NCBI GenBank assembly: GCA_964442615.1
Contig: CAYUAG010000001.1
Span: forward strand, 464-64,463
DNA: 64,000 nt
Direction of reading: 5' to 3'
Source: an uncultured bacterium
Lineage (GTDB): Bacteria > Zhuqueibacterota > QNDG01 > CAYUAG01
Part shown: piece after piece, positions 5,274-63,762 of the stretch
How the letters are laid out: each line of letters starts with the position of its first letter
Numbering within the stretch: position 1 is the first letter of the stretch
The notes under the pieces: model-generated
What the model saw: only the letters and a program-made list of their open reading frames with translations
What the model was told of the DNA's origin: nothing
The model's database searches: none
Position numbers and translations under genes: made by a program

Positions 5274-5279
5274 CATTGA

Positions 5280-5951
5280 TCATTCCTCCTTCTCAATCCA
5301 CCCATCCTTCAAATGGATAATCCGGTTTCCATATTTTGCTTTTTCCTCGGAATGGGTAACCTGGAGGATGGTCATGCCTTCCTCTTTGTTTAATTTTTTT
5401 AAAAGCTCCATAATTTCTTTTCCCTGCTGGGAGTTAAGATTCCCGGTAGGCTCATCCGCCAGTAAAAGGTTTGGCCGGATAATCAAGGCCCGGGCTACAG
5501 CAGTCAACTGCTGCTGACCTCCAGAGAGCTGATTAGGGAAGAGATTTTTTTTAGCAACAATATTGAATCGGTCCAGCACCTCTGCTACCAATCCTTTTCT
5601 TTCCGAAGTTTTAACTTTTTTATATAACAGAGGAGTCTCCAGATTTTCATATACGGTCATCTCATCAATAAGATGGTACTGCTGAAAAATGAATCCTATA
5701 TGCTGATGATGAAGACCGGTTCGCTGTTTTTCTTTTAAGGAATGGACAGGCTCATCAAAAAAATAGTATTCACCTTCTGAGGCAGTATCCAGCATACCCA
5801 GAATATATAAAAGTGTTGATTTTCCTGCACCTGACGGACCCATTATAGTGATAAACTCACCTTCCTTAATATCCAGATTGATTTGTCGTAAAACAAAGGT
5901 TTTAATAAATTTATTAGAATAATATTTGGTAATATCTCTTAATTTAATCAT
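5280..5951 (-). CDS. ABC transporter ATP-binding protein (MacB/LolD-like)
   Basis: Walker A GPSGAGKST, signature LSGGQQQ, Walker [14 protein letters not shown]-loop VTHS. Confidence 0.95.
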   Translation of the reverse strand: MIKLRDITKYYSNKFIKTFVLRQINLDIKEGEFITIMGPSGAGKSTLLYILGMLDTASEGEYYFFDEPVHSLKEKQRTGLHHQHIGFIFQQYHLIDEMTVYENLETPLLYKKVKTSERKGLVAEVLDRFNIVAKKNLFPNQLSGGQQQLTAVARALIIRPNLLLADEPTGNLNSQQGKEIMELLKKLNKEEGMTILQVTHSEEKAKYGNRIIHLKDGWIEKEE

Positions 5952-7132: not shown

Positions 7133-7611
7133 GTCAAATGTCAAACGTGAGAAAAAACCGTAACACCTCATTATATAGTACTTTTTATTAGTTTTGAAAG
7201 TGAAGCAAAAAGATGATTCATTTGTTTACTAATTTTATCTAAATCTTCCTGTCTACAATAGGTTAAATCAAGTGCAATTTCTAATTGTGTATCCAGTTCC
7301 GCTAATGATGATCTTGAAATTTCATAAAACCTTCTCCGTTCATTGCTGGAACTTCTTGCTGAGCCCTCTGCGATATTCGAAGGAATGGAAACAGCGCTTC
7401 TCCTGATTTGTGAAATTAAATTGTACATTTCTTTTGTTGGAAATTTTTCAGTTAATTCATATATTTTTATGACAAACTCCATTGCTAACTTCCAAACCTT
7501 TAATTTTTTATGTTTTAATTCGAGCATCTCATCTCCTGTAAAAACATTTTTCTGTTTTTGTTTATATACTTGCTGTCTTTTACCACTCACTTCTCACATC
7601 TCACATTTGAC
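7133..7611 (-). repeat. Inverted-repeat stem (arms 7133..7157 and 7587..7611) enclosing the four-helix-bundle ORF
   Basis: Hand alignment of gtcaaatgtcaaacgtgagaaaaaa against the reverse complement of 7587..7611 (gtcaaatgtgagatgtgagaagtga) covers 25 positions. There are 19 Watson-Crick pairs and 2 mismatches. The other 4 positions are U.G/G.U only on the minus strand. Confidence 0.6.
7171..7527 (-). CDS. Four-helix-bundle protein (23S rRNA intervening-sequence protein / Avd-like family)
   Basis: The motif KFPTKEMYNLISQIRRSAVSIPSNIAEGSARSSSNERRRFYEISRSSLAELDTQLEIA is characteristic of this family. The start is placed at MLELKHKKLKVW (7527), which has AGGAGAtgagATG upstream. The track's longer ORF (to 7590) would read through the repeat arm. 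Confidence 0.8.
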   Translation of the reverse strand: MLELKHKKLKVWKLAMEFVIKIYELTEKFPTKEMYNLISQIRRSAVSIPSNIAEGSARSSSNERRRFYEISRSSLAELDTQLEIALDLTYCRQEDLDKISKQMNHLFASLSKLIKSTI

Positions 7612-9178: not shown

Positions 9179-10555
9179 ATGAGTGAAAAGATTGGTAAAA
9201 TTCTTTTTATCGATGATAATGAGGATATACTGCAGGCTGCTCGGCTCTTTTTAAGACAGCATATGGCTGTTGTCCATACTGAGAAGAATCCAGAAATGAT
9301 TCCTTCCCTACTTAAACATGAGGATTATGATGTCATATTACTGGACATGAATTTTACTCAGGATGTTACCAGCGGTAAAGAGGGTTTTCTGTGGCTGGAG
9401 AAGATACTTGAAATTGATCCCTGGGCAGTTGTTGTTATGATAACAGCCTATGGAGATGTTGAGATGGCTGTACGTGCCATTAAAGCTGGAGCAATAGATT
9501 TTGTCTTGAAACCTTGGCACAATGAAAAGCTGCTTGCAACTATCTCAGCAGCTGTGAAATTAAGGCATTCCCGTACCGAACTTGATAGTCTACGTTCTCT
9601 TCAAAAACAATTGAGCGCAGACATGGATCAACCTTTCCATGATTTCATTGGCCAAAGTCCAGCTATGGAAGATGTATTTAAAACCATAAGAAAAGTAGCA
9701 AAAACAGATGCCAATGTTCTTATTCTGGGAGAAAATGGAACTGGCAAGGAGTTGGTTGCCAGGGCACTCCACCGGGAATCAAAACGGTGTAATAAAGTAT
9801 TTATCAGTGTGGATATGGGAGCTATTAGTGAAACTTTGTTTGAAAGTGAACTATTTGGTCATGTAAAGGGTGCTTTTACTGATGCCAAGTCAGATAGGGC
9901 TGGTCGTTTTGAAGTAGCCTCTGGGGGCACTCTTTTTCTTGATGAAATTGGAAATCTATCCAAGACTCTTCAAAGTAAACTTCTTACTGTATTGGAAAAC
10001 AGAAAAGTAATACGGTTGGGTTCACATAAACCAATTTCAATTGATATACGTCTTGTTTGTGCTACTAATAAATCCATTAGTGAAATGGTTACCAGGCAGG
10101 AGTTCAGACAGGATTTGCTGTATCGGATAAATACAGTGGAAATAAATCTACCCCCACTTCGTCACCGGAGAGAGGATATTCTACTGCTTGCAGAACATTT
10201 TTTAAAGATTTACTGCGAAAAGTATGATATGCTACCCAAAAAAATAAATAGTGAGACAAGAAGAAAAATGGAACAATATAAATGGCCTGGAAATGTAAGG
10301 GAACTGCAGCATGCTATTGAAAGAGCAGTTATAATGAGTGAGAATAAGACCTTGAAACCCTCTGATATCCTGCTTTCTATACCCAACAGTAAGAGTGAGG
10401 AATTATCTCTGGATAACTTAAAAATTGAAGAGATTGAGAAATTAGCTATTCAAAGATCGATTAAAAAATACAAAGGCAACATTTCAAGAGCTGCCAAGGA
10501 ATTAGGATTGACCAGGATTTCTCTCTATCGTAGACTGGAGAAATATGGAATATAA
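9179..10555 (+). CDS. Sigma-54-dependent response regulator (NtrC family: REC, AAA+, Fis-type HTH)
   Basis: REC domain (DDNEDIL...LLDMNF), Walker A GENGTGKE, GAFTDA (a GAFTGA variant), ESELFGH, and C-terminal HTH ISRAAKELGLTRISLYRRLEKYGI. Confidence 0.95.
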   Translation: MSEKIGKILFIDDNEDILQAARLFLRQHMAVVHTEKNPEMIPSLLKHEDYDVILLDMNFTQDVTSGKEGFLWLEKILEIDPWAVVVMITAYGDVEMAVRAIKAGAIDFVLKPWHNEKLLATISAAVKLRHSRTELDSLRSLQKQLSADMDQPFHDFIGQSPAMEDVFKTIRKVAKTDANVLILGENGTGKELVARALHRESKRCNKVFISVDMGAISETLFESELFGHVKGAFTDAKSDRAGRFEVASGGTLFLDEIGNLSKTLQSKLLTVLENRKVIRLGSHKPISIDIRLVCATNKSISEMVTRQEFRQDLLYRINTVEINLPPLRHRREDILLLAEHFLKIYCEKYDMLPKKINSETRRKMEQYKWPGNVRELQHAIERAVIMSENKTLKPSDILLSIPNSKSEELSLDNLKIEEIEKLAIQRSIKKYKGNISRAAKELGLTRISLYRRLEKYGI

Positions 10556-14800: not shown

Positions 14801-15898
14801 ATGGCTAGAAGAATATTTTTATCCCTCTATTTTTGGTCAATTTTTTTTCTCACCAGCATGTGCTTCAGTCAGGTATTTCAGCAGAAGAGTTCCATGAATT
14901 TTGGAGCAGAATTTTCCTGTCAGATTTGGAAAGCCGGAAAGGATAAAATTTCCGAATTTACTTTCCCTGTTATGTATATATATCCATTAAATAAAAAATG
15001 TCAGTTATATTCAATTTGTACTCCTCTGTATTCAACCCTATCTACAGGATTCAACTATCATTTAAGTTCAATTTCAGATATTAAACTGGGAGGTAAGTTA
15101 TTTATTTTAAACAACCGCTGGACTCTAACCTTTGGTCTTAATTTTCCTTTGGGTAGGAATAGATTGAACAGTAAAGAGAGACAAACTGCACAAGTACTTG
15201 CCATTCCTGCCTTTAATTTCAGAGCTCCAGATCCTGGGCAGGGTTTTAATATTCAGGTTGGAATTTGTAGTGCTAGGAGGTTTGACAATTTTCTTATAGG
15301 TTGGGGAGTGGGTGTTATTCTAAGAGGAGGATATAATCCTTTTTTTGAAAGCTCTGGTATCTATAATCCGGGAGATGAGCTGTGTGTTAATATTGGTGTT
15401 AAGGCAGGAGGCTGGAAGGGCGATCTTCTCTTTATAGCTAATGGTAGTGATACTTGGGAGTCAAAAAGACATCTTAAACCTGGTAACAGAATTATTATGC
15501 AGCTTCAATATTTTCAGCAAATTAATAGGATGAATTTCACTTTTATAATTATTAATAGAATTAAAACAAAAGATACCTTGTTTTCAGATTCGGTTGTACT
15601 TCCTCAAAAGATTGTAGCTAACAGTGGTCAGTTTGAGATCAGGAGTATATTGGGATTCGAACTTTTAAATGGGAATTTACTCAGGGGAATTTTTAATATC
15701 AAACATTGTTCTAACTCCCAATTTGATACAGGGGGGGCTTCAATGATTGGGATTGGTATAGGGGGAGATTTCAAAATATTCCCTAATCTCTGGTATAGAG
15801 GTGAAGTTAGTTATTTTGCAGGTAATATACTTATAAATGATAGAAAAGTTAATGCTAATGGTTTTGATTTAAGGGGCGGTATTGAAATAAATTTTTAA
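14801..15898 (+). CDS. Putative outer-membrane beta-barrel protein (365 aa), family not recognised
   Basis: Signal peptide, alternating beta-strand-like pattern, Gly/aromatic-rich strands and a C-terminal ...GGIEINF. It starts 11 nt after the upstream gene. Confidence 0.5.
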   Translation: MARRIFLSLYFWSIFFLTSMCFSQVFQQKSSMNFGAEFSCQIWKAGKDKISEFTFPVMYIYPLNKKCQLYSICTPLYSTLSTGFNYHLSSISDIKLGGKLFILNNRWTLTFGLNFPLGRNRLNSKERQTAQVLAIPAFNFRAPDPGQGFNIQVGICSARRFDNFLIGWGVGVILRGGYNPFFESSGIYNPGDELCVNIGVKAGGWKGDLLFIANGSDTWESKRHLKPGNRIIMQLQYFQQINRMNFTFIIINRIKTKDTLFSDSVVLPQKIVANSGQFEIRSILGFELLNGNLLRGIFNIKHCSNSQFDTGGASMIGIGIGGDFKIFPNLWYRGEVSYFAGNILINDRKVNANGFDLRGGIEINF

Positions 15899-16594: not shown

Positions 16595-18220
16595 ATGAAA
16601 AAAATATTTTTGATGATGTTCAGTATTTCTTTTTTAATGAGAAATATTGGGTATTCTCAGCAGATATCAGAACAGTCAATAAAATATAAACCTCATGATT
16701 GGATAAGTTAACCGGTAATGCGATTTGTAACGTCCATTGATCAAGGAGATGAATATATTTATTTTGGTACAACTAGAGGAATATGCAGATATAATCTTTA
16801 TAAGGAAGAATGGGGAAATCCATTTACCCGAAGTAATGGAATGAAGAGCGACAGGATTTTTATTGTATTTTATGATTTCATTGCAGGAAATTTATGGTGT
16901 TTAACAGATCAAGGATTGAGTTATCGGCTTTCGACTACTGGAGAGTGGTATAATGTAGGTTTTCCTGCCAATATCAGAGGAGGCATAAGTGCCATAGGAA
17001 GCAGTGAGAATTATATATGGCTTAAAAAAGGAGAGATTTACTATAAAGGAGATAGATTCGGCACTATATTTACTAGATCAAATGAAGAGAGTGCTTTTCA
17101 GGATAATGTCCGCTGGAGTAGTGCGGGTGCAGTTGATTCACTTCCTTATTTTTTTATGAATAATGAAGAATACATATTTGATCCGGAAGGTTATATCAAA
17201 CGTCTTGATTTGCGAAAATATCGTATAGCTTATGCATTTAAAGATAATTTCCGTTCAATATGGATAGGTACAGATGGACTGGGATGTGGAGTAGGAGATA
17301 TTAGAACAGAACGTTTGAGCCTTCTTCCTTTTGGGCTTTATCACTCTGATGTTCAGACAATGACCTGGGATGGTTTCACCATGTGGATTGGAGGTCACAG
17401 CGGCAGAAACAGGGGAGGAATTACCAGGTGGAATCAAAAAGAGAATAGCTGGGAATATTTTGAAGCTCTCTATTTGAGTGAGTTAAGAAGTGATAATGTT
17501 AATGATATATTAGTTGAGAAGGATACTTCTTTAGTTTGGTTTGCTACAGATGATGGTTTGGGGTGTTATAATAAACTGAGAGATACATGGAAAGTATATG
17601 ATGTGTTTGATAATCTTTGGGATGATTATATAACTTCTCTGGCTCAAACAGGTGATATACTTTGGATCGGTACGGCTGCAGGGATTAATAGAATGCAGGA
17701 AGGCATAATAAAAAAGGCGGACATACGATCTCTTAGCAAGAGAATGATTTATCGTTTAGCAAGTGATGGCAAAAATCTCTGGGCTGGAACAGATAGGGGA
17801 AAATATTTCTTTAATGGTGAAAACAGTAGATGGGATTTTATTAAAGGCGCTTCAAATGTGTTGAGTGTAGATATTAAAGCCATTGATATTTATAATAGAG
17901 AAGTTTGGTTTGCTGGTAATGGGGGAGTGGAGATGTATGATATAAAGAATAAAAAATGGCAGGGATATACTTCTGAACATTATCCAGTTTTTGTTGAGAT
18001 TAACTCTATACTTAATACAGAAGATATTGTATGGATGGCTTCTGAAAGAGGTTTGATTAAATATATAAAGAAAGAGAATCGCTGGCGTCGTTTTACTATA
18101 AAGGATGGATTATTACATAATTCGATAAAATGGATTGTTCCAGATGGGGATTATATTTGGCTTGGTACTCCCTCTGGAATCACACGTTTTTACTGGAATG
18201 CTCCTTATAGGATTGATTAA
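16595..18220 (+). pseudogene. Secreted beta-propeller protein (two-component-regulator-propeller / Reg_prop-type repeats), split by an in-frame TAA at 16709..16711
   Basis: ATG at 16595 gives MKKIFLMMFSISFLMRNIGYSQQISEQSIKYKPHDWIS, then TAA. PVMRFVTSIDQGDEYIYFGTTRGICRYN... follows in the same frame. Repeats include IWIGTDGLG, LWIGTAAGINR, LWAGTDRGKYFF, VWFAGNGGVEMYD and IWLGTPSGITRFY. Confidence 0.7.
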
Positions 18221-25023: not shown

Positions 25024-25052
25024 TTGACAAACTCTTAAAAATTATATATACT
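25024..25052 (+). promoter_or_regulatory. Sigma-70-type promoter (TTGACA-N17-TATACT) of the SusC/SusD operon
   Basis: TTGACA at 25024..25029, a 17-nt spacer and TATACT at 25047..25052. This implies a leader of about 340 nt. Confidence 0.65.
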
Positions 25053-25190
25053 ATGTATACTCTAAATTTAATGTAGATAAAATAGTCAGCAATGGATGGA
25101 AATGATAGAAAAATTACTATTATATTCCTGAAATGAAAAGTGATTTGTTTTTAAGGAATGTTTCATATCTTAATAAATTATAATTTTTTA

Positions 25191-25336
25191 ATGATTAAAA
25201 GGAGGTGATAAGATAAAAATATTTATTGTTATTATGCAGGAGGTGATGAAGGGATTTAAGAGTTTTAATGAGTAATTATATGGAAAGGAGGTGAAGTGAT
25301 AAAGATTTTTAGGTTCATATATGTGGTGATCAAAAG
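25191..25336 (+). repeat. Degenerate tandem units in the SusC leader, each carrying a near-full complement of the 16S rRNA 3' tail
   Basis: AAGGAGGTGAT (25199..25209), AGGAGGTGAT (25238..25247), AAGGAGGTGA (25285..25294) and a degenerate GGTGATC (25324..25330). Each unit begins with ATG (25191, 25234, 25280, 25321). Spacing is about 38-47 nt. Confidence 0.7.
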
Positions 25337-25398
25337 AAAAGATTGGAATGGGTATTTTGTTTGAGTTATTTATTATCAAAGAAAAAGGAGTTGAGAAA

Positions 25399-28300
25399 AT
25401 GAAAAAAATAGTAAATATTTTTACAATCATTACATTAGTTTTGACAGCGGGTTGCTTATTTGCTCAGCAGGTTACAATTAGTGGTTCTGTAATAGATGCA
25501 ACAACAGGTGAGCCTCTTTCATTTGCTAATGTATCAGTAGAAGGAAAACAAGTAGGTGCTGCTACAGATGAAGATGGATATTTTGCATTTACTATGTCCT
25601 TGACTGAAGAGGTTAAATTAATAGTAAGTTATATGGGTTATAAAAAGCAGGAGCTTATTTTACAGCCTGGAGATCCGCGTTTGACTACAGATCTTTTATT
25701 TGAACTGGAACCCGATGTAATTGGACTTGAGAAGATAGTAGTTACAGCCTTGGGTATAACCAAAGAAGAGAAAGCCATAGGATATGCCCAGCAATCAATA
25801 GGATCTGATGAATTGACAGAAGTAGGCGAACCAAATATTGTAAGTAATTTATCCGGGAAGGCAGCTGGAGTGCAAGTTATAAATTCTACAGGTACAATAG
25901 GTTCTTCCGCCAGAATACAGATCCGTGGGATTAGTTCATTAACCGGGGATAACCAGCCCTTGTTTGTGGTTGATGGAGTACCTATTGATAATACCTCCAG
26001 AAATATTGGCCCATATGGTCAATCAGTTGATTTCGGAAATGCTGCTGCAGATATAAGTCCTAATGATATCAAAAGCATAAACATATTAAAAGGTGCAAAT
26101 GCTGCTGCTTTGTATGGTAGCAGAGCTCTTAATGGGGTAGTAGAAATTACAACTAAAACTGGAAAAGGTGCTGGTTTAATACAGAAAAGAGGTCTTGGAA
26201 TTTCTTATACTAATCATCTTACTTTCAGGGTGTATAATCCTATATATAAATTTCAGGATAAATACGGACAAGGCTCTTGGTTTGATTTTACCTATGGAGA
26301 CGGTAATGGCGGAGGCTATTATGATAATGTAGATGAAAGCTATGGACCCCCCTTAGACGGATATCGGTCTGATGAGTACCAAGAATTGTATGGTGATCAT
26401 CCTTATATCCAGATTCAGGGACCAGGAGAACCTCTACTTGTTCCCCAATTTGATTCACCACTTCCGGATGGAACTATAGATCCTAGTGTTAACAGTTTAG
26501 AGCGTACACCAACTCCCTGGATATCTCATCCTGACAATGTTAAGAATTTTTTCGAAACCGGATTTTCCCATCAACATAATGTTTCTGTTTACGGAGGAAG
26601 TCGGGGAGCAAATTTCCGTATTTCTTATACCTATCAAGATGATAAGGGAATAATTCCCAATACCGATCGGTTAAGAAATTCAATATATCTAAGTGGTAAT
26701 ATACAGGTAAATCCAAAGCTGTCTATATCAGGTGTAGCGAATTATATAAATACTGCAAGTGATAATCTAAGTGGTAATGGATATTCTACCACTAGTCCCA
26801 TGCAGCAGTTTACCAGCTGGTTTGGTCGCCAGGTAGATCTTTCCTGGCTTAAAGATAATCTTGAATCCCCTGATGGTACTCCCTATAGATGGAATTATTC
26901 ATATCATGATAATCCTTACTGGACTGCGTATAAAAATACAAATTCAATGTACAGGCACCGGATATTTGGTCATATTGATGTAGATTATAAATTTAACGAT
27001 TGGATAAGTTTAACTGCTCGAGGCGGCACCGACGTTTACACAGAAAATAGAAAATATATAAGAGCAAAATTTTCCAATGACTTTCCAGATGGACGATTGA
27101 ATGATAACAATGACGTTACCAGAGAAACTAACTTTGATGTATTTGTAAGAGCAAATCGATCCCTTACTGACGATATTTCTGTAAATGCTCTGGTTGGGGC
27201 AAATTACAGGTCAAATCGTTATACATACCAGCAGACATATGTTGATGGATTGATCATTCCTGACTTATACGCAGTTAGCAATGCCAGTGTAACGCCTACT
27301 ACTGATACATATTTGCAAGAATCAGTACATAATAGTATCTACGGACGCCTTTCTGCTGGATACAAAGATTATCTCTTTCTGGAGGCTACTGGAAGAAATG
27401 ATTGGTCTTCTTGCCTGCCTGAAGATAATAGAACTTATTTTTATCCATCTGTAACTACTTCTTTTCTTTTTTCCGAATTTTTTGATATAGATCCAAAAGA
27501 TTTATTTGGAAAAATAAGAGCAAGCTGGGCAAAAGTAGGTAACACAGCTAATCCATATTCATTAATTACTACCTATTATTCTCAGGAAACGTTTATGGGT
27601 AAAGCAAATTTATCTTATGCCAATACCATGGCCAATGCAGACTTAAAGCCTGAAGAGAAGACCAGTATTGAATTAGGAACTGATTTGAAATTCTATAATA
27701 ATCGTGTTGGTTTATCTTTTACCTGGTATAAAGAAAACACCATAAATCAGATTATGGATGTTTCTGTTTCAGGAGCCAGTGGCTTTACCAGAAAATGGAT
27801 CAATGCTGGAGAAATTCAAAATACAGGTATCGAAATATTATTACATGGCACTCCTTTAGAAAAAGAAAAATTCAGATGGGATATTGATGTTAACTGGGCT
27901 CAAAATAACAATGAAGTAATTAAACTGTATGGAGATGTTAAATCTCTGGAACTCTGGCGGGCTGCCTGGGATCTAAAAGTTCTTGCCCGGGAAGGGGAAC
28001 CATGGGGCCAGTTATATGGATGGCCAACAACAATGCATAAGGGTAAACCAGTTGTTTATTCTACTGGTTATTATGCAGGTTGTGGACAGACAACTGGTAT
28101 TCCAGAAGTGTTGGGTAATGTTATACCGGATTGGACAGGCGGAGTCAGAAATACTTTTCGATATGGGGATTTTTCTCTCAGCGCTCTTATAGATATGAGC
28201 ATGGGTGGAGATGTTTTTAGTATAACTAATAATTTTGGATGGGAAGCAGGAACCTTGATTGAGTCAGTAGAGGGTTATGATTATAAAAATGGAAATAAGA

Positions 28301-28719
28301 CTTATAAAGCCACACCAGTAACTGGTAATGATATGAGAATAGATGGTGTGCTTGTCGATGGGTATAAATTGCAAGACGATGGTTCCTATGTAAAGAATGA
28401 TATTGTTGCTGATTACAGAGCCTGGGCTTGGGCCTTTTGGCCGTCTGTAGGAGGTCATGATTTATCCATATTCGATGCTAGCTGGGTAAAATTGCGCAGT
28501 GTGATTCTATCCTATCGAATTCCTAAAAAATTTGTATCAAGATTTGGCTTAATGGGTGCAACAGTCAGCCTTGAAGGCAGGAATCTGCTTATTCTTTACA
28601 AAAATGTTCCCAATATAGATCCTGAAACATCCTATTCCGCAAGTATTGTACAGGGTATTGAGATGAATCAATTACCAAATACCAGAATATTTGGTATGGG
28701 TCTTAAGCTTGATCTATAA
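25399..28719 (+). CDS. SusC/RagA-family TonB-dependent outer-membrane transporter
   Basis: Start placed at MKKIVNIF (SD AAAGGAG 8 nt upstream). Signal peptide, CarboxypepD_reg-like domain (VTISGSVIDATTGEPLSFANVSVEG), plug (NILKGANAAALYGSRALNGVVEITTK) and a large barrel. Confidence 0.9.
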   Translation: MKKIVNIFTIITLVLTAGCLFAQQVTISGSVIDATTGEPLSFANVSVEGKQVGAATDEDGYFAFTMSLTEEVKLIVSYMGYKKQELILQPGDPRLTTDLLFELEPDVIGLEKIVVTALGITKEEKAIGYAQQSIGSDELTEVGEPNIVSNLSGKAAGVQVINSTGTIGSSARIQIRGISSLTGDNQPLFVVDGVPIDNTSRNIGPYGQSVDFGNAAADISPNDIKSINILKGANAAALYGSRALNGVVEITTKTGKGAGLIQKRGLGISYTNHLTFRVYNPIYKFQDKYGQGSWFDFTYGDGNGGGYYDNVDESYGPPLDGYRSDEYQELYGDHPYIQIQGPGEPLLVPQFDSPLPDGTIDPSVNSLERTPTPWISHPDNVKNFFETGFSHQHNVSVYGGSRGANFRISYTYQDDKGIIPNTDRLRNSIYLSGNIQVNPKLSISGVANYINTASDNLSGNGYSTTSPMQQFTSWFGRQVDLSWLKDNLESPDGTPYRWNYSYHDNPYWTAYKNTNSMYRHRIFGHIDVDYKFNDWISLTARGGTDVYTENRKYIRAKFSNDFPDGRLNDNNDVTRETNFDVFVRANRSLTDDISVNALVGANYRSNRYTYQQTYVDGLIIPDLYAVSNASVTPTTDTYLQESVHNSIYGRLSAGYKDYLFLEATGRNDWSSCLPEDNRTYFYPSVTTSFLFSEFFDIDPKDLFGKIRASWAKVGNTANPYSLITTYYSQETFMGKANLSYANTMANADLKPEEKTSIELGTDLKFYNNRVGLSFTWYKENTINQIMDVSVSGASGFTRKWINAGEIQNTGIEILLHGTPLEKEKFRWDIDVNWAQNNNEVIKLYGDVKSLELWRAAWDLKVLAREGEPWGQLYGWPTTMHKGKPVVYSTGYYAGCGQTTGIPEVLGNVIPDWTGGVRNTFRYGDFSLSALIDMSMGGDVFSITNNFGWEAGTLIESVEGYDYKNGNKTYKATPVTGNDMRIDGVLVDGYKLQDDGSYVKNDIVADYRAWAWAFWPSVGGHDLSIFDASWVKLRSVILSYRIPKKFVSRFGLMGATVSLEGRNLLILYKNVPNIDPETSYSASIVQGIEMNQLPNTRIFGMGLKLDL

Positions 28720-28768: not shown

Positions 28769-30349
28769 ATGAAAAACAATAAAATTAAAATAGTATTATT
28801 TGGTGTTTTAGTCCTGCTGTTTTTATCCTCTTCCTGTACCGAAGATTTTAGTACTATAAATACAAACCCAAATGAGCCATCAGATGTTCCTGCTGTTAAC
28901 ATTCTGGTTTACGCTAGCTATTGGGGAATATGGCGGGAACTGGGTGATGGCTGGATGAACCATACTTATCTTGGCGGCTGGTCTCAGTTATTTACTAAGA
29001 TTCAGTATGTTGATGAAGATAGATATTTATTTAGAGGCACTAATATAAATGATGTTTGGAATAGAACATACGAAAGAGAATTAAAGGACCTTCAGATAGT
29101 TATCAAAAAGGCACAGGATAAAGGATTTGCATCACTTGAGGCAGCAGCCAGAATTATGAAAGCATATTTTTTCCAGAGAACCACTGATCTATTTGGTGAT
29201 GTACCCTATTCAGAAGCTCTTGCTGGTGATACTGAAGGTGAATTAACCCCCAAATATGACACTCAACAGTCTATTTATACTGATTTAATCAGTGAACTTA
29301 AGGCAGCTGATAATATACTTGCCACTGCAGATGCAGGCCAATTACCTAATGGTGATGTTATCTATGGTGGAGACATTACAGGCTGGAGAAAGTTTGCAGG
29401 TTCTTTATTAGCGAGAATTTATATGCGTATGTCAGGAGTGGATGCAGCTACAGCCCAGGCTGGTATAGAAGCAGTGTATGCTGCTGGTAATTACATTCAG
29501 AGTAACGCTGACAATGCTACCTTGGCTGTGGATGGAACAAAGCCCTATAGAAATGGACTTATGGAGTGTCTGTCAACCCGTACGGATCAGGGATCAAGCA
29601 GAACCATGATTGATTTGCTGATAGAGAGAAATGACCCCAGACTTCCCATCTATGCTCAGGATATTGATGATAATTATGGTACAGGTGATTATGATGGTCC
29701 GGATGATGTTTTTGTAGGATGGATAAATGGAAGTACAACAAATCCCAATTTTGGTGAAGTATCCCTTCTGGGAGTTCCTATTGCTTATGATGCTTACAGA
29801 GCATATCAAATTTTGACCTATGCAGAAACATGTTTTCTATTTGCTGAAGCTGCTTTAAACGGATGGAATGTTGGAGATGATGCTCAGACCTGGTATGAAG
29901 CAGGTATAACAGCATCCTTAGAGCAGTGGTCTGCTTTGGCTCTGGCTTCACCAATGGCAGGTTTTGCAGCAGACGCTGCTACCATTACTCAAGCAGAAAT
30001 TGATGCCTACTTAGATGAAGATATGGTTAAATGGGATGCAAGTAAAGGTAAGGAACTGGTATTAACCCAAAGATGGCTTGCTTTAATGCCTAATGGTCCA
30101 CAGGCTTTCTCTCTGGTTAGAAGAACCGGTTATCCTGCGGTCATTGAATCCTATGAATTGCCAGGTACTCCCTATCCTGGATTAGGTGTACCTCTTCGCT
30201 TCCCATATCCTACTGATGAAGAAGCAAGAAATGGTGATAATTTAGCAACAGCCAGTGCAGGTATACATGATGATATGTTTGGTAAACCAGTATGGTGGGA
30301 TGTTAGAACCACAAAAGCAGATGGTAGTGCTCGACCAGGAATTAATTAA
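28769..30349 (+). CDS. SusD/RagB-family nutrient-binding outer-membrane lipoprotein
   Basis: Lipobox LSSSC. Its size and its position immediately downstream of SusC fit. It has helical TPR-like content typical of SusD-like proteins. Confidence 0.75.
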   Translation: MKNNKIKIVLFGVLVLLFLSSSCTEDFSTINTNPNEPSDVPAVNILVYASYWGIWRELGDGWMNHTYLGGWSQLFTKIQYVDEDRYLFRGTNINDVWNRTYERELKDLQIVIKKAQDKGFASLEAAARIMKAYFFQRTTDLFGDVPYSEALAGDTEGELTPKYDTQQSIYTDLISELKAADNILATADAGQLPNGDVIYGGDITGWRKFAGSLLARIYMRMSGVDAATAQAGIEAVYAAGNYIQSNADNATLAVDGTKPYRNGLMECLSTRTDQGSSRTMIDLLIERNDPRLPIYAQDIDDNYGTGDYDGPDDVFVGWINGSTTNPNFGEVSLLGVPIAYDAYRAYQILTYAETCFLFAEAALNGWNVGDDAQTWYEAGITASLEQWSALALASPMAGFAADAATITQAEIDAYLDEDMVKWDASKGKELVLTQRWLALMPNGPQAFSLVRRTGYPAVIESYELPGTPYPGLGVPLRFPYPTDEEARNGDNLATASAGIHDDMFGKPVWWDVRTTKADGSARPGIN

Positions 30350-30431: not shown

Positions 30432-30911
30432 TTTTTTCATTTAAGTCCATTTTGAAATTTAACCTGTCTTCACCAAAAATAAAAAATAAATTAATATTTT
30501 AATAAATTATACCATTTTAATTTAAATTTTATAACTACAGATTTTTTTATTTTTCCATGACTGTTTTTTAAATTATTTTCAGGTCTTGTTTGATAGCTGA
30601 CTAAATAAATAAGTGACAGTTTCTTTTGGTTTTATCTAGTTATAGAAAGATAGGTATGGTCTCAGGCACAGATTTCATAATCCTAACAGTCTGCTTAACC
30701 TGACAGAGCTTTTTGTACTAGAGGATGAGTTTTTTTTATGGATAATGTCTATTTAAGAAAAAAATCCTTAAGGCCAAGAGGAGCCCTACTATCTGAGCCT
30801 CTGTAACTATGCAATAATATTTTTAAATGAGACTCATTGATTATAAATTTTGAGTTGATTGAAAGGTTTTAAAAAAAGTATATTAAAATTACACTTGTCA
30901 GAATATTAAAA

Positions 30912-31079
30912 AACCTGCAACCCAACTTTTACTATGCAAGAACTCGTCCAGAAAGGGTGGGTACCCTCCTATACGCTTTTTGTGTCTCTATAACCTTTAG
31001 AGCTTGCAATCCACGCTAGAGCCGAGTTCCCTATTTATAAGTGTTAGCTCTTCATAGTTTCCAGTTGAGGCTGCAGGTT
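30912..31079 (+). ncRNA. Candidate structured small RNA (long closed helix with internal loops; 6S-like shape; identity unknown)
   Basis: The 5' end aacctgcaacccaact pairs with the 3' end agttgaggctgcaggtt (15 bp, one mismatch, one bulge). The helix continues with actatg/catagt and aaga.c/g.tctt. Internal hairpins include agggt-gggt-accct and ctcta-N7-tagag. A possible promoter TTGATT-N18-TATATT lies at 30855..30884. The strand is tentative. Confidence 0.3.
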
Positions 31080-31264
31080 ATTTATAAGATTTCTTATTTT
31101 AATTTGGTAATTTATTTTTTAAAAGTCAAGAGAAGATTTTTTTTGTTAAAAAATAGTTGATTTTTATTGAGAAATTAAGTAATCTTATAAAACAAGTAAA
31201 TTTTTAAAAATATAAGTTTTTTTGAATTTGATTTACAAAAACAATCTGTAAAGAGGTAAAAGTA

Positions 31265-41278: not shown

Positions 41279-42781
41279 TTAAAGATTTATTTGAGCGCCT
41301 GCTGTAATTACAAAGGCATTAAATTTATAGCTTCCAGCGTAATTATCAGCTATTCCTGTAGCAAAATCAAATTCATATGAATCGACTTCTTTATCGGAAA
41401 AAATTACATATTCACCTGCAAGATTAAAATTTATTTTCCCCAGATTCAGTCCGAATCCACCAGTAATGACGTGACGGCGATTGGGATCAGGAATGGTTGG
41501 GGACATGGTTTCATCTGGAACAGGCGAGCCAACTGTATAGTAACCAGCGCGCAGGGCGAATTTGGGAGAAAGCACATATTCAACTCCTCCACCTATCTCT
41601 ATAGTATTTTTCCAGTCTTGTTCCAATTCAAGATTGTCACTGCCCTCAACTTCAACCTCAATCACATCCCAGGTTGCCCATTGGGTCCAGGAGAAATCTG
41701 CCACAAAAGTCAGCTGGTCTGTTGCTTTATAAGCAAAACCAGCTCCGGCAGTAATGGGCAGAGGAAGATCAGCTGTAACATCAGAGGTTGTTGGGATATT
41801 CATACCGCTGAAAAGAGCGAGTAAACCTTGTTTTGTAGCAGTTCCTGTAGGATCTTGTTCGCTGGCATAGGCAGCATCTGGTACAGCATTGAGAGTTGCA
41901 TATTTAGCAGCATCACCGTGCATAATAATTATCTGTTTATTATCACCAGAGAGTTTTAAATCGGAATTGTAACGAAGTGATATTCCAATAGAGAGTTTGT
42001 CATCGGCCTGATAATGGATTCCTACATTAGCTCCGTATGCTGAGCCTGATCCAGACAGGTTATTTTCTAAAACAAGTCTGTACTGATCAAGAGTGAGCGC
42101 TGGTAAAGTTATTCCACTTTGTGCAAAAGCTGCTGTTAAGTATGCCCAACTTGCAGCCGCAGGATTAAAGGTCAGTTTAACCATATCCAGATCCATTTTA
42201 CCCCAGATGTAGCTCAGTCCTAAACCAATAGAGAGTTTGTCTGATATTTTATATGCAATAGTTGGCTGAATATTGATTACCTGATGATCACTAAAACTTT
42301 CTTTATCCTTAGAAATGCCAGTTGTATTACCATAAGAAGCAGGTAAATTAATTAAGTCCCACTCGGATCCGAGGCCGAAGGGTGCGTAAATACCCAGTCC
42401 AAAGGTTAATTTTTCAGATGATTTGTAAAGTATACCCAAAGATGGTACAAAGAAGTTTTGAGCAGTGGCGTCAACTTGGTTTAAATCCATTCCGGAAAAG
42501 GGAAATGCTGTAAGGAAATAATCATTAGCAGTATATGAACCACGAGGCATTATTAAACCATTTGATATTCCAATAGTCCATTTTCCATTCAATTGAGTCA
42601 ATCCTGCTGGATTAAAAAAGAGTGCACTCCAGTCATCTGCTAAACCCCGAAAACAGCTACCCATGGCTGTGGAACGTGCACCAACGGTTCCTATTTGAGT
42701 ACCATTACTAGCAGAAACCGGATTGTTAAGGATGAGAATTAACACAAAAAATAAAACGACTGAAATAGTTTTTTTAACCAT
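41279..42781 (-). CDS. Outer-membrane transport protein of the OMPP1/FadL/TodX family (a PorV-like role cannot be excluded)
   Basis: Signal peptide, then GARSTAMGSCFRGLADDWSALFFNPAGL (FadL-family N-terminal hatch motif) and a beta-barrel pattern to the C-terminus. Confidence 0.75.
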   Translation of the reverse strand: MVKKTISVVLFFVLILILNNPVSASNGTQIGTVGARSTAMGSCFRGLADDWSALFFNPAGLTQLNGKWTIGISNGLIMPRGSYTANDYFLTAFPFSGMDLNQVDATAQNFFVPSLGILYKSSEKLTFGLGIYAPFGLGSEWDLINLPASYGNTTGISKDKESFSDHQVINIQPTIAYKISDKLSIGLGLSYIWGKMDLDMVKLTFNPAAASWAYLTAAFAQSGITLPALTLDQYRLVLENNLSGSGSAYGANVGIHYQADDKLSIGISLRYNSDLKLSGDNKQIIIMHGDAAKYATLNAVPDAAYASEQDPTGTATKQGLLALFSGMNIPTTSDVTADLPLPITAGAGFAYKATDQLTFVADFSWTQWATWDVIEVEVEGSDNLELEQDWKNTIEIGGGVEYVLSPKFALRAGYYTVGSPVPDETMSPTIPDPNRRHVITGGFGLNLGKINFNLAGEYVIFSDKEVDSYEFDFATGIADNYAGSYKFNAFVITAGAQINL

Positions 42782-50759: not shown

Positions 50760-51074
50760 ATGAATAAGAAAGTATTTATTATAAATATAATCATTTTTCT
50801 GCTATTTTGTAGTTGTTCCTTATTTAAGACTGATAATACAAACTCAGCAATTAAGGGTAGAGTTTATATTACTGGAAATGAACCTTTTACCCGCCTTGCC
50901 TTGGAAGATAAAAAAGGGAGAATTTTTTATCTTACCTGTGATGAGAAGGTGAAAAAGGAACTTTGGAAATTTCAGGGTAAAGCAGTATTGATTTATTATA
51001 CCGAAATTCTAAGAAATAAAGCTGGAAAATTTATTAAAGTAATTAAATATGAGCTTATTGATAAGGAGAAATAA
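50760..51074 (+). CDS. Small lipoprotein (104 aa), uncharacterised
   Basis: Lipobox LLFCSC. It ends 1 nt before the metalloprotease start codon. Confidence 0.5.
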   Translation: MNKKVFIINIIIFLLFCSCSLFKTDNTNSAIKGRVYITGNEPFTRLALEDKKGRIFYLTCDEKVKKELWKFQGKAVLIYYTEILRNKAGKFIKVIKYELIDKEK

Positions 51075-51075
51075 G

Positions 51076-53343
51076 ATGAAAAAGGATTATTATTTATTAG
51101 GATTTTTGTTTTTTCTTTTAATGACTGTCTTAGTAAATGCTCAGGATAAAACGATGTTTAAGAAAGCAGAATTGGCAAAAGAAAGTGTTCTCCTAAAAAA
51201 AGAATTACAAGCAATACCCGGTTCCTTTGTTTTGTATGAGCAAGAAAGGAAATTAGCAGAATATATTAAAAATCATCCTGAAATTATGGAAAAGCAAAAA
51301 CTGCATAAAAGCTATGCCTGGAATTTTCAAGTAGGAGATACCCGTACCTGGTGGGCAACCAATATGCGTACCATGACTGAGTATGAAGTAGAGTCAACTT
51401 GTCGGGCAGTGGGAGAGTACTGTTATGTATTTGTTCAGGATTCACAGTGGGTAGATGGAGAAAACAGCAGAGTAAATCAAGCAGCGGTTGATTCCATAAA
51501 GAAGTATTTTGACTCCTGTACTCCTATAGATCCGAATAAAGGAATTTATGAGATAGATGTGGAAACATTCGGTACTCCTCCTGATTTTGATAATGATCCT
51601 AAAATAATAATTTTAGTTTTGGATATTCAGGATGCTTTTGCTGCTGGAAGTGGTTGGGTTGGAGGTTATTTCTATTCTTTAAACCAATATGCAGATGGAA
51701 CATTTTCGGGACGGAGAAGTAATGAGGCAGAAATTTACTATATTGATTCGGATCCTACTGATTTAAATGATAGCAGCGGATTAACTGATGCTTTGAGTAC
51801 AACTGCTCATGAGTTTCAGCATATGATACACTGGGGAAAAGATAATGATGAATTAACCTTTGTTGATGAGGGATGTGCTACTGCTGCTGAAGTGGTATGC
51901 GGATTTTCAATATATTCCCAGGGATATTTTACTAGTAATCCTAATAGATATCTTTTTGAATGGGCTGGGAGTAGCAGTGAGGAGGTCTTTCAAGATTATG
52001 CCCGTTCTGCCCGCTGGACAGTTTATTTAGATGAACAATTCCCTAATAACTATTTACATAAGCTTGTGGCAGAATCTAAAAATGGTATAGATGGTATTGA
52101 TGAAGCTTTAAAATCTTATACTCCTTCTACATCCAGAAGATTTCTTGATATTTTTGAAGACTGGTGTGTGGCAAATTATCTTAATGATAAAACTGTAGAT
52201 AATACCTATGGGTATGATTATTCTCCCCTACCTGCGGTTGATCCGGAAAATACGTATATAGATCCGAATGTTTCTACCATCCAGGATACAGTACAAAATT
52301 TAGCAGCCCAGTATATATGTTTCAAGGGAGGAAGAGACCTTTCCATTACCTTTAATACTTTATCTTCAAGTTTGGTAGTAAAAGCTTTAAAAATTGGGAG
52401 TACTGTTGTGGATGATGTCCCCTTAAATTCAGAATATACTGTTCCTGATTTTGGCACTACTTATTCTGAAGTAACCTTTGTGGTGATAAATAAAAATGAT
52501 TTTTCAGATGCAATATATACCTACACTGCTTCGGGAAAAGCATCCCAGGAAGCTCAGGAGATAGCCTATGATGATGGAATACCAGAAGGATATCTATCAT
52601 TATCTGTTGGTGATACAATTGCAGTGGTTTTTGAGGGGCTGATAGGCACAACTCTTGACAGTGTATGGATTGCATTTAGAAGAGCTGGTACAATAACCAT
52701 GGGAATTAATAGTTACTCTGCTATGAGTTTGTTAGGGCAGGAAATAATATCACCTATTCAAGTACAATGTGCAACTGAGACTTCTACTCCTTATCCTGTT
52801 CCCTATGAAAACTGGGTAACAGTGGATTTAACCTCCTACACTATTGATGCAGGTTCTGACTATGTTATCTGGTTTGAAGTGACTAATTCCGATGCACCAG
52901 CAGTTATGCTTAGCAGTGAATCTGATAATGGTGATTACCATAGTTATACTTATTCACATGATCATGGGAAATGGGTTATATATGGTGATGGGCAAGGGAA
53001 TATTTATAATTATTTAGTTCATTCCTATTTAGGGATATCTACAGCAGTGGATAATGATGAATCATTATCAAATATCCCTAATGAGTATTCTTTATCTCAG
53101 AACTGTCCCAATCCCTTTAATCCGGTAACAACCATAAAATATGGATTACCAAAATCAGGACATGTTAATTTAGTAGTTTATGACATTAGGGGAAGAGAAG
53201 TGATGCATCTCATTGATGAAGTCAAGAGAGCAGGATTTCATTCAATTGATTTTGATGGTTCCCGATTTGCAAATGGATTGTATTTTTATCGTTTAAAGAG
53301 CGAGAACTTCCAGAAAATAAGAAAGATGATGATCATTAAATAG
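51076..53343 (+). CDS. Secreted HExxH zinc metalloprotease with a T9SS C-terminal sorting domain
   Basis: Start at MKKDYYLLGFLFFLL (signal peptide). Zinc motif TAHEFQHMIHW. The C-terminus is NCPNPFNPVTTIKYGLPKSGHVNLVVYDIRGREV...GLYFYRLKSENFQKIRKMMIIK (TIGR04183-like). Confidence 0.75.
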   Translation: MKKDYYLLGFLFFLLMTVLVNAQDKTMFKKAELAKESVLLKKELQAIPGSFVLYEQERKLAEYIKNHPEIMEKQKLHKSYAWNFQVGDTRTWWATNMRTMTEYEVESTCRAVGEYCYVFVQDSQWVDGENSRVNQAAVDSIKKYFDSCTPIDPNKGIYEIDVETFGTPPDFDNDPKIIILVLDIQDAFAAGSGWVGGYFYSLNQYADGTFSGRRSNEAEIYYIDSDPTDLNDSSGLTDALSTTAHEFQHMIHWGKDNDELTFVDEGCATAAEVVCGFSIYSQGYFTSNPNRYLFEWAGSSSEEVFQDYARSARWTVYLDEQFPNNYLHKLVAESKNGIDGIDEALKSYTPSTSRRFLDIFEDWCVANYLNDKTVDNTYGYDYSPLPAVDPENTYIDPNVSTIQDTVQNLAAQYICFKGGRDLSITFNTLSSSLVVKALKIGSTVVDDVPLNSEYTVPDFGTTYSEVTFVVINKNDFSDAIYTYTASGKASQEAQEIAYDDGIPEGYLSLSVGDTIAVVFEGLIGTTLDSVWIAFRRAGTITMGINSYSAMSLLGQEIISPIQVQCATETSTPYPVPYENWVTVDLTSYTIDAGSDYVIWFEVTNSDAPAVMLSSESDNGDYHSYTYSHDHGKWVIYGDGQGNIYNYLVHSYLGISTAVDNDESLSNIPNEYSLSQNCPNPFNPVTTIKYGLPKSGHVNLVVYDIRGREVMHLIDEVKRAGFHSIDFDGSRFANGLYFYRLKSENFQKIRKMMIIK

Positions 53344-62193: not shown

Positions 62194-63762
62194 CTATTTC
62201 AGCAGGATCATTTTCTTTATATCAGTAAAATTACCTATTTGCATTCTGTAAAAATATATTCCTGATGATATTTGAGAACCTTCAAGTCGTATAGAATGTT
62301 TTCCAGTCTGATAAAAACTATCAGTACAGGTCATGATTTTTTCTCCTCTAAGGTTATACATTTTTATTTTTACCCAGGATGGTTTGTTTATACTGAATTG
62401 AAATGTAGTGGCAGCATTAAATGGATTGGGGAAGTTTTGATGCAGTTTATAATCATTTACTTTTACTTTACTGTTTTTAATCCCTGAGTCCTTGGTGATT
62501 TTCCAAACATGAACCAGAGGTTTGTCATTATCTGCCCCCCTTTCCATAATAAACAAATGGTTTCTTTTTCTGTCGTAACCGACTGATGAAATCCGGTATA
62601 ACTGCTGTAGGGAATCTATATTGAACAGATAGGAATCAATATTCAGAGAATCATAGGGCTGAGGATACCAGGTATCGGAAGTTCCGTGAGCAACATTAAT
62701 TAACTCTTTGGGATTAAAAAAGAGAATCTGGGCTTTAAACTTTTTACACCACCATCCTCTTTGACTGTGTGGATCATCAGGATAGGGCTCCTCCCAAAGA
62801 CTTCCATCAGGGAGACCATACCAACACTTTCCCATTCCCTTGGTACCAACAAATATTACTGCAGAACTGTTACCGCAGGTGAGCCAGGCACCTCCGATCC
62901 ATTCATCAGCTTCTTTAAAATGATTCATTTGCATACTATCACTTGTTACAATATGCTGATTACCTATCTGCTGGAAGCCGTATAACATAAGGGGAATTAC
63001 ATCTTCAATTGTGTCACCTTTTGCCAAGGTTTCCTGATAGGGATTGTAAGCAAATAGAGCTGGTCCCATACCGCTCCAGAGACCATCTCGAAACCTCCCG
63101 GAAGCAAGTCGCATCCCAGTTCCAATTTGTTCAGCTTCTGGTTCAGGTATCTCGAAAATATAATCATTAGACACATAGTTTGAATAGTTACTGAAATACC
63201 AACCTCCTTTAGATTGGAGTTTTGAGAGATCCAAGCCGCACATCATATGAGATGGATTCCTCTCATTCTCCTGAAAATGCTGTCCCCAGCAGAGATGGAG
63301 TCTGCCATCATTCTGATTATTCTGAAGTGGAAGATATTCCATTCCTACTCTGATTATTTCATAAAAGAGTTCATAACCTTTACCATCCTGAAACAAATCT
63401 AAACGCACATTATTGAAATCCTGAAGAGTCACAGCTGTATTTAGTTCCTCTAGATTGTTACATTCTGAAATAATTGGAACTGGAATACTGATTTCAGATA
63501 CATACATGTTCCAGTCATGTCCCACTCCGTAAAGAGATCCTGGATAACCATCTTCACCTCCTGCAGGATCACCTTTGGAATTATAGGTCATGGCACTTCC
63601 TCCCCAGTTCCAGCCATGTTCATAGGGAGATGTATCGGGTAATCGAAAAGCACCCTGATACTCAAGATTTTCAGAATTAATAAGCTGACTAAAACTTGGA
63701 ATAGAAAGTGACATGATACATGTATGAATTAATATTAAAAAGTTAAAATATAAAATTTTCAT
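62194..63762 (-). CDS. Secreted protein of unknown function with a T9SS C-terminal sorting domain
   Basis: Signal peptide. The C-terminus is LHQNFPNPFNAATTFQFSINKPSWVKIKMYNLRGEKI...GIYFYRMQIGNFTDIKKMILLK (TIGR04183-like). Confidence 0.7.
   Translation of the reverse strand: MKILYFNFLILIHTCIMSLSIPSFSQLINSENLEYQGAFRLPDTSPYEHGWNWGGSAMTYNSKGDPAGGEDGYPGSLYGVGHDWNMYVSEISIPVPIISECNNLEELNTAVTLQDFNNVRLDLFQDGKGYELFYEIIRVGMEYLPLQNNQNDGRLHLCWGQHFQENERNPSHMMCGLDLSKLQSKGGWYFSNYSNYVSNDYIFEIPEPEAEQIGTGMRLASGRFRDGLWSGMGPALFAYNPYQETLAKGDTIEDVIPLMLYGFQQIGNQHIVTSDSMQMNHFKEADEWIGGAWLTCGNSSAVIFVGTKGMGKCWYGLPDGSLWEEPYPDDPHSQRGWWCKKFKAQILFFNPKELINVAHGTSDTWYPQPYDSLNIDSYLFNIDSLQQLYRISSVGYDRKRNHLFIMERGADNDKPLVHVWKITKDSGIKNSKVKVNDYKLHQNFPNPFNAATTFQFSINKPSWVKIKMYNLRGEKIMTCTDSFYQTGKHSIRLEGSQISSGIYFYRMQIGNFTDIKKMILLK

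Follow-up and report, generated by a model that had tools for sequence, protein, structure and literature searches.

Background

Upstream Shine-Dalgarno (SD) sequences that do not initiate translation were long known from one Bacillus toxin gene, and only lately have they been shown to be common and functionally important in Escherichia coli. In the toxin gene, cry3A of Bacillus thuringiensis, the element called STAB-SD (GAAAGGAGG) lies ~125 nt upstream, with the promoter at -558, and the 30S ribosomal subunit bound there blocks RNase J1 (Agaisse & Lereclus 1996; for the link to RNase J1, Mathy et al. 2007; reviewed in PMC4113751); additional upstream SDs, up to three, have been described for many cry genes (PMC12970973). 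Here we describe three SD-like motifs in the leader of a susC gene, which encodes a SusC/RagA-type TonB-dependent outer-membrane transporter, on a 64 kb stretch of DNA from an uncultured bacterium (contig CAYUAG010000001.1 of assembly GCA_964442615.1; this whole stretch is hereafter the window). Judging from the sequence and its relatives, we hold with moderate confidence that the three are non-initiating upstream SDs of a susCD leader, at which docked 30S subunits would raise expression.

In E. coli, 30S-seq has revealed hundreds of upstream ribosome-binding sites (uRBSs), many of them SD-like and some more than 100 nt upstream; the upstream SD (uSD) of focA, at -213, binds 30S without initiator tRNA, and its mutation leaves ~10-fold less expression; such sites (e.g. 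those of focA and skp) supplement and do not replace the true SD, and some mRNAs have several of them (bioRxiv 10.1101/2025.04.04.647229). Standby sites, as in the MS2 coat gene and the tisB +42 mRNA, capture 30S ~100 nt upstream of a ribosome-binding site (RBS) that is locked in stable structure, and are unstructured tracts or pseudoknot-dependent elements (PMC7708055, PMC5934652). Untranslated SD sequences stabilise ompA, lacZ and ermC, ribosomes being an obstacle to RNase E as it scans (PMC7509114). Initiation is poorer from SDs of more than 6 nt (PMC2176067).

The element in the window belongs to this known STAB-SD or upstream-SD kind and brings no new principle; what is distinctive here is the tandem copies, the extended complementarity to 16S rRNA, the conserved phasing and the reuse on a paralogous transporter gene. 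Bacteroidota, a phylum near the host lineage, has largely abandoned SD-led initiation, and the locus provides comparative evidence for selection on such sites outside model organisms.

Results

Predicted pairing of the leader motifs with the 16S rRNA tail

The features of the susCD locus are listed below; the transcription start is predicted from the promoter to lie near 25059, and the leader would be transcribed from there.

25024..25052, + strand: sigma-70-type promoter TTGACA-17-TATACT, with 11 of 12 consensus positions matched
25059..25398, + strand: predicted untranslated susC leader, ~340 nt
25197..25209, + strand: upstream SD 1, AAAAGGAGGTGAT, with its GGAGG 198 nt 5' of the ATG and its core AAGGAGGTGAT at 25199-25209
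25238..25247, + strand: upstream SD 2, AGGAGGTGAT, with its GGAGG 160 nt 5' of the ATG
25283..25294, + strand: upstream SD 3, GAAAGGAGGTGA, with its GGAGG 112 nt 5' of the ATG and its core AAGGAGGTGA at 25285-25294
25324..25330, + strand: GGTGATC, a putative fourth motif that is not part of the element
25384-25390 and 25399-25401, + strand: true susC RBS AAAGGAG and start codon ATG, with a spacing of 8 nt
25399..28719, + strand: SusC/RagA-type TonB-dependent outer-membrane transporter gene, with Pfam CarbopepD_reg_2 and Plug domains
28769..30349, + strand: SusD-like lipoprotein gene (Pfam SusD-like_2, 2.8e-86)

The promoter, the three motifs, the RBS and the ATG had all been placed at these positions in a first-pass annotation of the window, and the sequence confirms each of them. 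That annotation had also suggested computing hybridisation energies. A duplex-energy scan, in which each 16-nt segment of either strand was paired with the canonical 16S tail (5'-GAUCACCUCCUUUCU-3') over the full 64 kb, ranks the three motifs 1, 2 and 4 on the + strand: upstream SD 3 is predicted at -22.1 kcal/mol, the strongest site in the window, followed by upstream SD 1 at -19.5 kcal/mol and, in fourth place, upstream SD 2 at -17.7 kcal/mol. The best of the window's 46 genuine RBS regions reaches -13.4 kcal/mol, and their median is -7 kcal/mol. Like the 5' untranslated region (UTR) sequences by which STAB-SDs are defined, the three motifs are complementary to the 16S 3' end, over 10-13 nt. 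Counting both strands, the 64 kb contain the word AGGAGGTGA four times, against 0.44 expected. Of these occurrences, one (63554, minus strand) lies inside a coding region and the other three fall within 95 nt of the leader. When eight orthologous or paralogous loci were scanned in the same manner, the leader motifs were again the top-ranked anti-SD sites.

Docking of 30S subunits at the motifs presupposes a host 16S 3' end with CCUCC / ACCUCCUU. Gene upstream regions in the window pair with the anti-SD above background (p = 8e-7, 46 genes), which argues that the host uses SD-led initiation and makes a canonical CCUCC tail very likely. The window itself holds no 16S rRNA or tRNA gene within its 64 kb.

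Conservation and phasing among relatives

The SusC protein of the window belongs to an orthologue clade of 62-75% protein identity, beyond which the next relatives drop to 49%, and whose loci come from metagenome and metagenome-assembled genome contigs. Eleven orthologous leaders of this clade, that of the window and ten more at 62-80% protein identity, have GGAGG(T/C)G in one to three copies (the window, L011, L014, L094, L179, L175, L174, which is the same as L098, L099, L009, L012 and L180), and a twelfth leader with such copies precedes a paralogous TonB-dependent receptor gene (L174b); shuffled leaders carry 0.02-0.06 copies each. A TTGACA-type promoter lies 330-620 nt upstream of the ATG in all 11 orthologous leaders, with CTTGACAA followed by a TATxxT -10 box kept in every one of them and TTGATT found in the paralogous leader.

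The flanks of the motifs have diverged. In an alignment of eight leaders the mean identity is 51%, and the only invariant blocks are the proximal A(A/G)GGAGGTG, the RBS and the ATG. When seven independent leaders are searched for common 8-mers, only the AGGAGGTG family, the word CTTGACAA of the promoter and a T-run recur in at least six. Nineteen motif instances (17 from leaders and two from upstream ClpX/ClpP coding sequence, L174 -607 and L176 -331) give the consensus GAAAGGAGGTGAT, in which GGAGG-G is invariant and the T is present in 18 of 19, and every position of this consensus is complementary to the 16S tail. This is the pattern of purifying selection on an extended anti-SD complement. 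In the group closest to the window, upstream SD 1 is kept in L011, L014 and L094, upstream SD 2 is kept in L011 and L014 (AGGAGGTGTT) and has decayed in L094 (CAGGAAGTAC), and upstream SD 3, the proximal copy, is the best conserved of the three. The array of three to four motifs originally described therefore stands at three, since the degenerate GGTGATC reads GGTCTAA in L094 and is absent from the list of strong anti-SD sites.

The motifs keep their distance from the start codon. The proximal GGAGG lies 89-95 nt 5' of the ATG in seven leaders and ~105-111 nt in the AT-rich group of the window, and the distal copy lies 142-152 nt 5' of it, which gives motifs at ~92 and 150 nt in most leaders, while the distance from promoter to motif varies from ~140 to 500 nt. 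As in the uRBSs and uSDs of E. coli, we find strong, conserved SD-like motifs well over 35 nt upstream of the gene, at positions -89 to -198 across 12 leaders, that lack a functional start codon. On the contig of L174, positions 15245-15755 contain the leader of the second TonB-dependent receptor gene, built as the same module: a TTGATT-17-TATAAT promoter is followed by a hairpin with a U-run, by AAGGAGGTGA at 151 and again at 95 nt 5' of the ATG, and by an RBS. When the two L174 leaders are compared, nothing beyond these elements (promoter, hairpin, motif pair and RBS) is conserved. The extended, non-initiating anti-SD complements that the first-pass annotation saw in one leader are in this way recovered in diverged orthologues and in one paralogue, with neither a start codon nor an open reading frame (ORF) conserved after any motif.

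Outside the clade the picture differs. The motif 8-mer between -400 and +90 was found at none of 91 non-clade SusC loci (from Bacteroidota, Gemmatimonadota and others), so a search of other SusC-like leaders for the array, as had been proposed, succeeds among clade orthologues and the L174 paralogue and fails beyond them, and we reject the idea that SusC leaders in general carry the motif. Motif pairs are restricted to this clade in the 1.2 Mb of loci that were fetched, two apparent pairs elsewhere being coding sequence or a true RBS.

A hairpin upstream of the motifs in GC-richer leaders

Seven leaders (L009, at 9761-9815, and L099, L175, L174, L174b, L012 and L180) contain a strong, terminator-like composite hairpin with an outer stem CCATCAA/TTGATGG or a variant of it and a predicted stability of -14 to -23 kcal/mol. 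The U-run behind it lies 195-226 nt before the ATG and 45-75 nt upstream of the distal motif, and purine-rich GGAG/GGGGA tracts precede it in these GC-richer leaders. The AT-rich group of the window has only a weak hairpin (25098-25128). Promoter scans of L009 and L175 returned no conserved promoter downstream of the hairpin, and a candidate second promoter just upstream of motif 1 in the window (TATAAT, 25179-25184) was rejected, having no acceptable -35 box and not being reported by the promoter scan.

Start codons, leader structure and other explanations

If the motifs were the ordinary RBSs of small upstream ORFs (uORFs), whether leader peptides or start-stop elements, whose translation regulates susC, one would expect each to be followed by a start codon at a functional spacing and by a conserved small ORF. 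Several instances are indeed followed by an NTG: motif 3 of the window has GTG at +4, opening a 22-aa ORF, the L175 copy at -150 has ATG at +5 with an 8-aa ORF, the L174 copy at -93 has ATG-TAA, and motif 2 in the window group is followed by (A/T)TG AAG GGx TTT. Yet 8 of 22 instances, upstream SD 1 among them, are without an NTG in the following 14 nt, and most of the others are spaced at 2-4 nt, under the functional spacing, as is the case for upstream SD 2, whose sole nearby start codon stands 2 nt past GGAGG and is too close to function. The GTG of motif 3 (25296), which had been considered a possible start, is lost in L014 and L094, and a 1-nt indel between the window and L011 shifts the reading frame. 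The ORFs that follow motifs are 1-33 aa long, are lost in close relatives and show no peptide conservation; the units said to begin with ATG begin with ATA, ATC or ATT in L011, L014 and L094, and with this the ATG of the proposed mini-ORFs ending in AGG AGG TGA disappears in all three. We found no conserved ORF on either strand of the leader among the relatives, and no conserved small ORF with an RBS at functional spacing of the kind that defines a leader peptide, and we consider the uORF explanation very unlikely. The start codons being absent, too close or unconserved, the motifs show by sequence criteria the lack of translation initiation that characterises STAB-SDs. SD-induced pausing of elongation, suggested earlier, needs an ORF running across the motifs and falls for lack of a conserved one; a role as antisense anti-SD mimics fares no better, since the sole promoter-like site on the minus strand (25302-25275) has hexamers that are not conserved in L011 and an 80-aa antisense ORF is broken in L011 and L094. 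A cis-acting RNA switch, in which the motifs would form one strand of a pairing with CU-rich, anti-SD-like leader segments, perhaps together with the upstream hairpin, and so control readthrough or access to the RBS, has several points in its favour: CU-rich segments lie near the leader 5' end in L175 (CACCCCTCCTT), L174 (TATCTCCTGA), L174b (TAACTCCCG) and L099 (GGCTCCTGAA), L175 and the proximal motif of L174 pair in cis above shuffles (p ~0.01-0.09), and in the GC-richer leaders the strong hairpin with its U-run stands close upstream of the distal motif. The window's own group, in contrast, lacks any CCUCC-like segment, and for 12 of 16 motifs the best intramolecular duplex is no better than in shuffles, with cis duplexes of -6 to -14.5 kcal/mol that are always weaker, and by far, than the duplex with 16S rRNA. 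Leader folds are no more stable than shuffles in the window (z = -0.13) or in a further leader (z = +0.25), while that of L012 reaches z = -1.8; no structure common to the proximal motif and the RBS was found across leaders, and no terminator is predicted in the window leader. At the gathering threshold, Rfam (15) matches only a 6S RNA elsewhere in the window and nothing in the leader, and at E<=10 the leaders of the window and of L012 return noise only. A switch of this type we likewise regard as having little probability.

Two further explanations concern what the motifs would be if they were neither translated nor paired in cis. A trans-acting factor other than the ribosome (a CsrA-like GGA-binding protein, a small RNA with a CU-rich seed, or a regulator recognising direct repeats in DNA) is rather unlikely in our estimate. 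The classical layout of a CsrA target has multiple GGA sites in the leader, often presented in hairpin loops, with one of them overlapping the true SD, and this leader does have several GGA sites, the true SD included; the purine-rich tracts further upstream in the GC-richer leaders and the fairly regular 38-60 nt spacing of the motifs as direct repeats also fit such a factor. A site with a GGA core, however, predicts something other than the 12-13 conserved positions that each match the 16S tail and a GGAGGTG preserved in 18 of 19 instances: conservation spans the whole anti-SD complement, and a consistent presentation of the GGA sites in hairpins was not seen. The leader copies are all on the sense strand, which argues for a role at the RNA level over one at the DNA level. 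The annotated proteins of the 64 kb window, which samples little of the genome, include no CsrA. 16S rRNA is the one partner sure to be present and abundant. That the motifs are functionless, neutral relics of a tandem duplication of the gene's own RBS and first codons is extremely improbable. Copies 1 and 3 do resemble the true RBS region (23 nt, 78-83% identity), as 25300-25318 resembles 25412-25430, but relics would decay, and here an 8-12-mer stays invariant amid flanks of 51% identity, keeps its positional phasing and is retained in a paralogous leader, and the copies beat the true RBS (AAAGGAGTT) as anti-SD complements. A tandem-repeat origin was rejected on separate grounds: TRF reports no array over the motifs, and only the SD-like cores repeat.

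Discussion

Proposed docking of 30S subunits at the upstream SDs

The 12-13 conserved positions, the strict sense orientation and the lack of usable start codons make the 16S 3' end the simplest partner of the motifs, and their conservation in relatives suggests that what they most likely hold is small ribosomal subunits. Each motif could pair with the single-stranded 16S 3' end (5'-GAUCACCUCCUUUC-3') as a helix of 10-13 bp. This pairing is far above that of any nearby real RBS and leads to no usable start codon, so that stable docking of a 30S subunit, with no initiation, is to be expected; the poorer initiation from SDs longer than 6 nt fits such a holding role for sites of 10-13 nt. A docked subunit would then raise susCD expression by protecting the mRNA, by loading ribosomes, or by both. 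Under protection, as in the STAB-SD mechanism, it would act as a roadblock against 5'-end-dependent decay of the long leader and the mRNA behind it, whether by an RNase J-type exonuclease or a scanning RNase E; under loading, as at uRBSs and standby sites, subunits would be kept ~90-150 nt upstream and handed on to the ordinary RBS. Docking as stabiliser or as loader was also among the roles suggested earlier for this leader, and it is plausible. The distance to the ATG is conserved where that to the promoter varies, a contrast that tips somewhat towards an interaction with the true region of initiation; sequence alone does not decide between stabiliser and loader.

Several observations weigh against docking as we propose it. 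A STAB-SD needs to be near the 5' end, whereas the distance to the promoter is long and variable here, so that a processing step must be assumed. Standby classically needs a structured RBS, and the susC RBS has a high predicted probability of being unpaired in the window and L175 and a low one only in L009 and L099; the stable structure locking the true RBS by which standby is recognised was not consistently found. The anti-SD that we scored is a canonical tail inferred from RBS usage. In L180 the strongest motif is out of phase with the rest, at 283 nt 5' of the ATG, and a subgroup of orthologues, L176 (1171-1291) and L177 (105-313)/L178, has short leaders without motifs. The N-terminal region of SusC differs in this subgroup, and its motif-free leaders indicate that the element is dispensable for the transporter as such and is an add-on. 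Lastly, the terminator-like hairpin upstream of the motifs in the GC-richer leaders stands in an unexplained relation to them.

That hairpin, standing next to the motifs, may be an attenuator working with them, and it is the main reason for retaining a more elaborate regulatory possibility, which we nevertheless consider unlikely: that the leader is a lineage-specific post-transcriptional module of outer-membrane transporter genes. Its components would be a strong promoter, in the GC-richer relatives also the terminator-like hairpin, then two to three phased super-SDs at ~92/150 nt and an ordinary RBS, and free 30S subunits would gate expression by occupying the super-SDs. If this were so, importer synthesis would be coupled to the idle 30S pool or to readthrough of an upstream attenuator, and the sites would do more than stabilise passively; such a module would have as its signature a conserved phasing to the ATG and its reappearance before a second TonB receptor gene.

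Comparison with described systems

Non-initiating 30S docking, the explanation we favour, places the susC motifs beside several described elements. With the STAB-SD of cry3A they share SD-like sequence complementary to the 16S 3' end and not used for initiation, and they differ from it in their two to three tandem copies, their longer complementarity (10-13 nt) and their phasing to the ATG; the host here is, moreover, an uncultured diderm bacterium of the FCB group and not a Firmicute. The uRBSs and uSDs of E. coli are likewise strong, conserved SD-like motifs far upstream in the 5' UTR with no functional start codon. Binding of 30S and an effect on expression have been demonstrated in E. coli and are inferred here, and the present motifs exceed the 5-7 nt classed as strong in the E. 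coli study and make up a phased tandem module, which is found again in the leaders of orthologous and paralogous transporter genes. Standby sites capture 30S at a distance close to that of the proximal motif here (~90-110 nt), and differ in not being SD complements and in serving an RBS locked in structure, whereas the susC RBS is not consistently sequestered. The 5' UTR stabilisers of E. coli ompA and of ermC, gsiB and aprE in B. subtilis (PMC7509114) resemble the susC leader in that a ribosome or 30S subunit bound to the leader without productive translation is proposed to protect the abundant mRNA of an envelope protein from 5'-end-dependent decay; the bound site there is the gene's own RBS or a leader-peptide ribosome that has stalled, and here it would be a set of separate upstream decoys. 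The susC leader is also a compact natural construct, in which the motifs can be mutated one by one to separate mRNA protection from ribosome loading.

Gene calls and neighbouring genes

The SusD-like gene is probably in the same operon as susC, and a SusC-SusD pair is present, by Pfam matches and synteny, in every orthologous locus that reaches far enough; NCBI names the orthologue P0014 SusC/RagA. Gene calls from JGI (locus L001) begin SusC at the ATG at 25348, giving a protein of 1123 aa. This is probably an over-extension, since the ATG at 25399 has a proper RBS and is directly followed by a signal peptide (MKKIVNIFTIITLVLTAGCLFAQQ), and the orthologues, in all of which the RBS and ATG are kept, align from 25399. 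A SusC protein beginning at 25399 has no exact database record. For annotation the case is a caution: very strong SD matches in a leader are no sure sign of a gene, and gene callers probably misplace the start of SusC here.

The 6S (SsrS) RNA gene matched by Rfam lies on the minus strand at 30908-31082, between the SusD and NfeD genes (RF00013, 53.3 bits against a gathering score of 46.4). Elsewhere the window encodes two proteins with type IX secretion C-terminal sorting domains, a PorZ-like protein, a PorV/FadL-like protein and a 23S rRNA intervening-sequence protein (51049-53343 (+), 62194-63762 (-), 16718-18220 (+), 41279-42781 (-) and 7171-7590 (-)). The SusC and SusD genes, the type IX secretion cargo and the PorV/PorZ-like proteins together place the host in the FCB group. 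Of the named matches to MetK, the best is from candidate division KSB1 (72% identity).

One other strong anti-SD complement in the window, GAAGGAGGAATGATCA (5277-5292, minus strand, -17.3 kcal/mol), sits at the 3' end of an unannotated gene of 223 aa (5280-5951), ~135 nt upstream of the start, at 5144, of an ADOP-family permease. An ATG stands only 1 nt past its GGAGG, and it may be another non-initiating SD.

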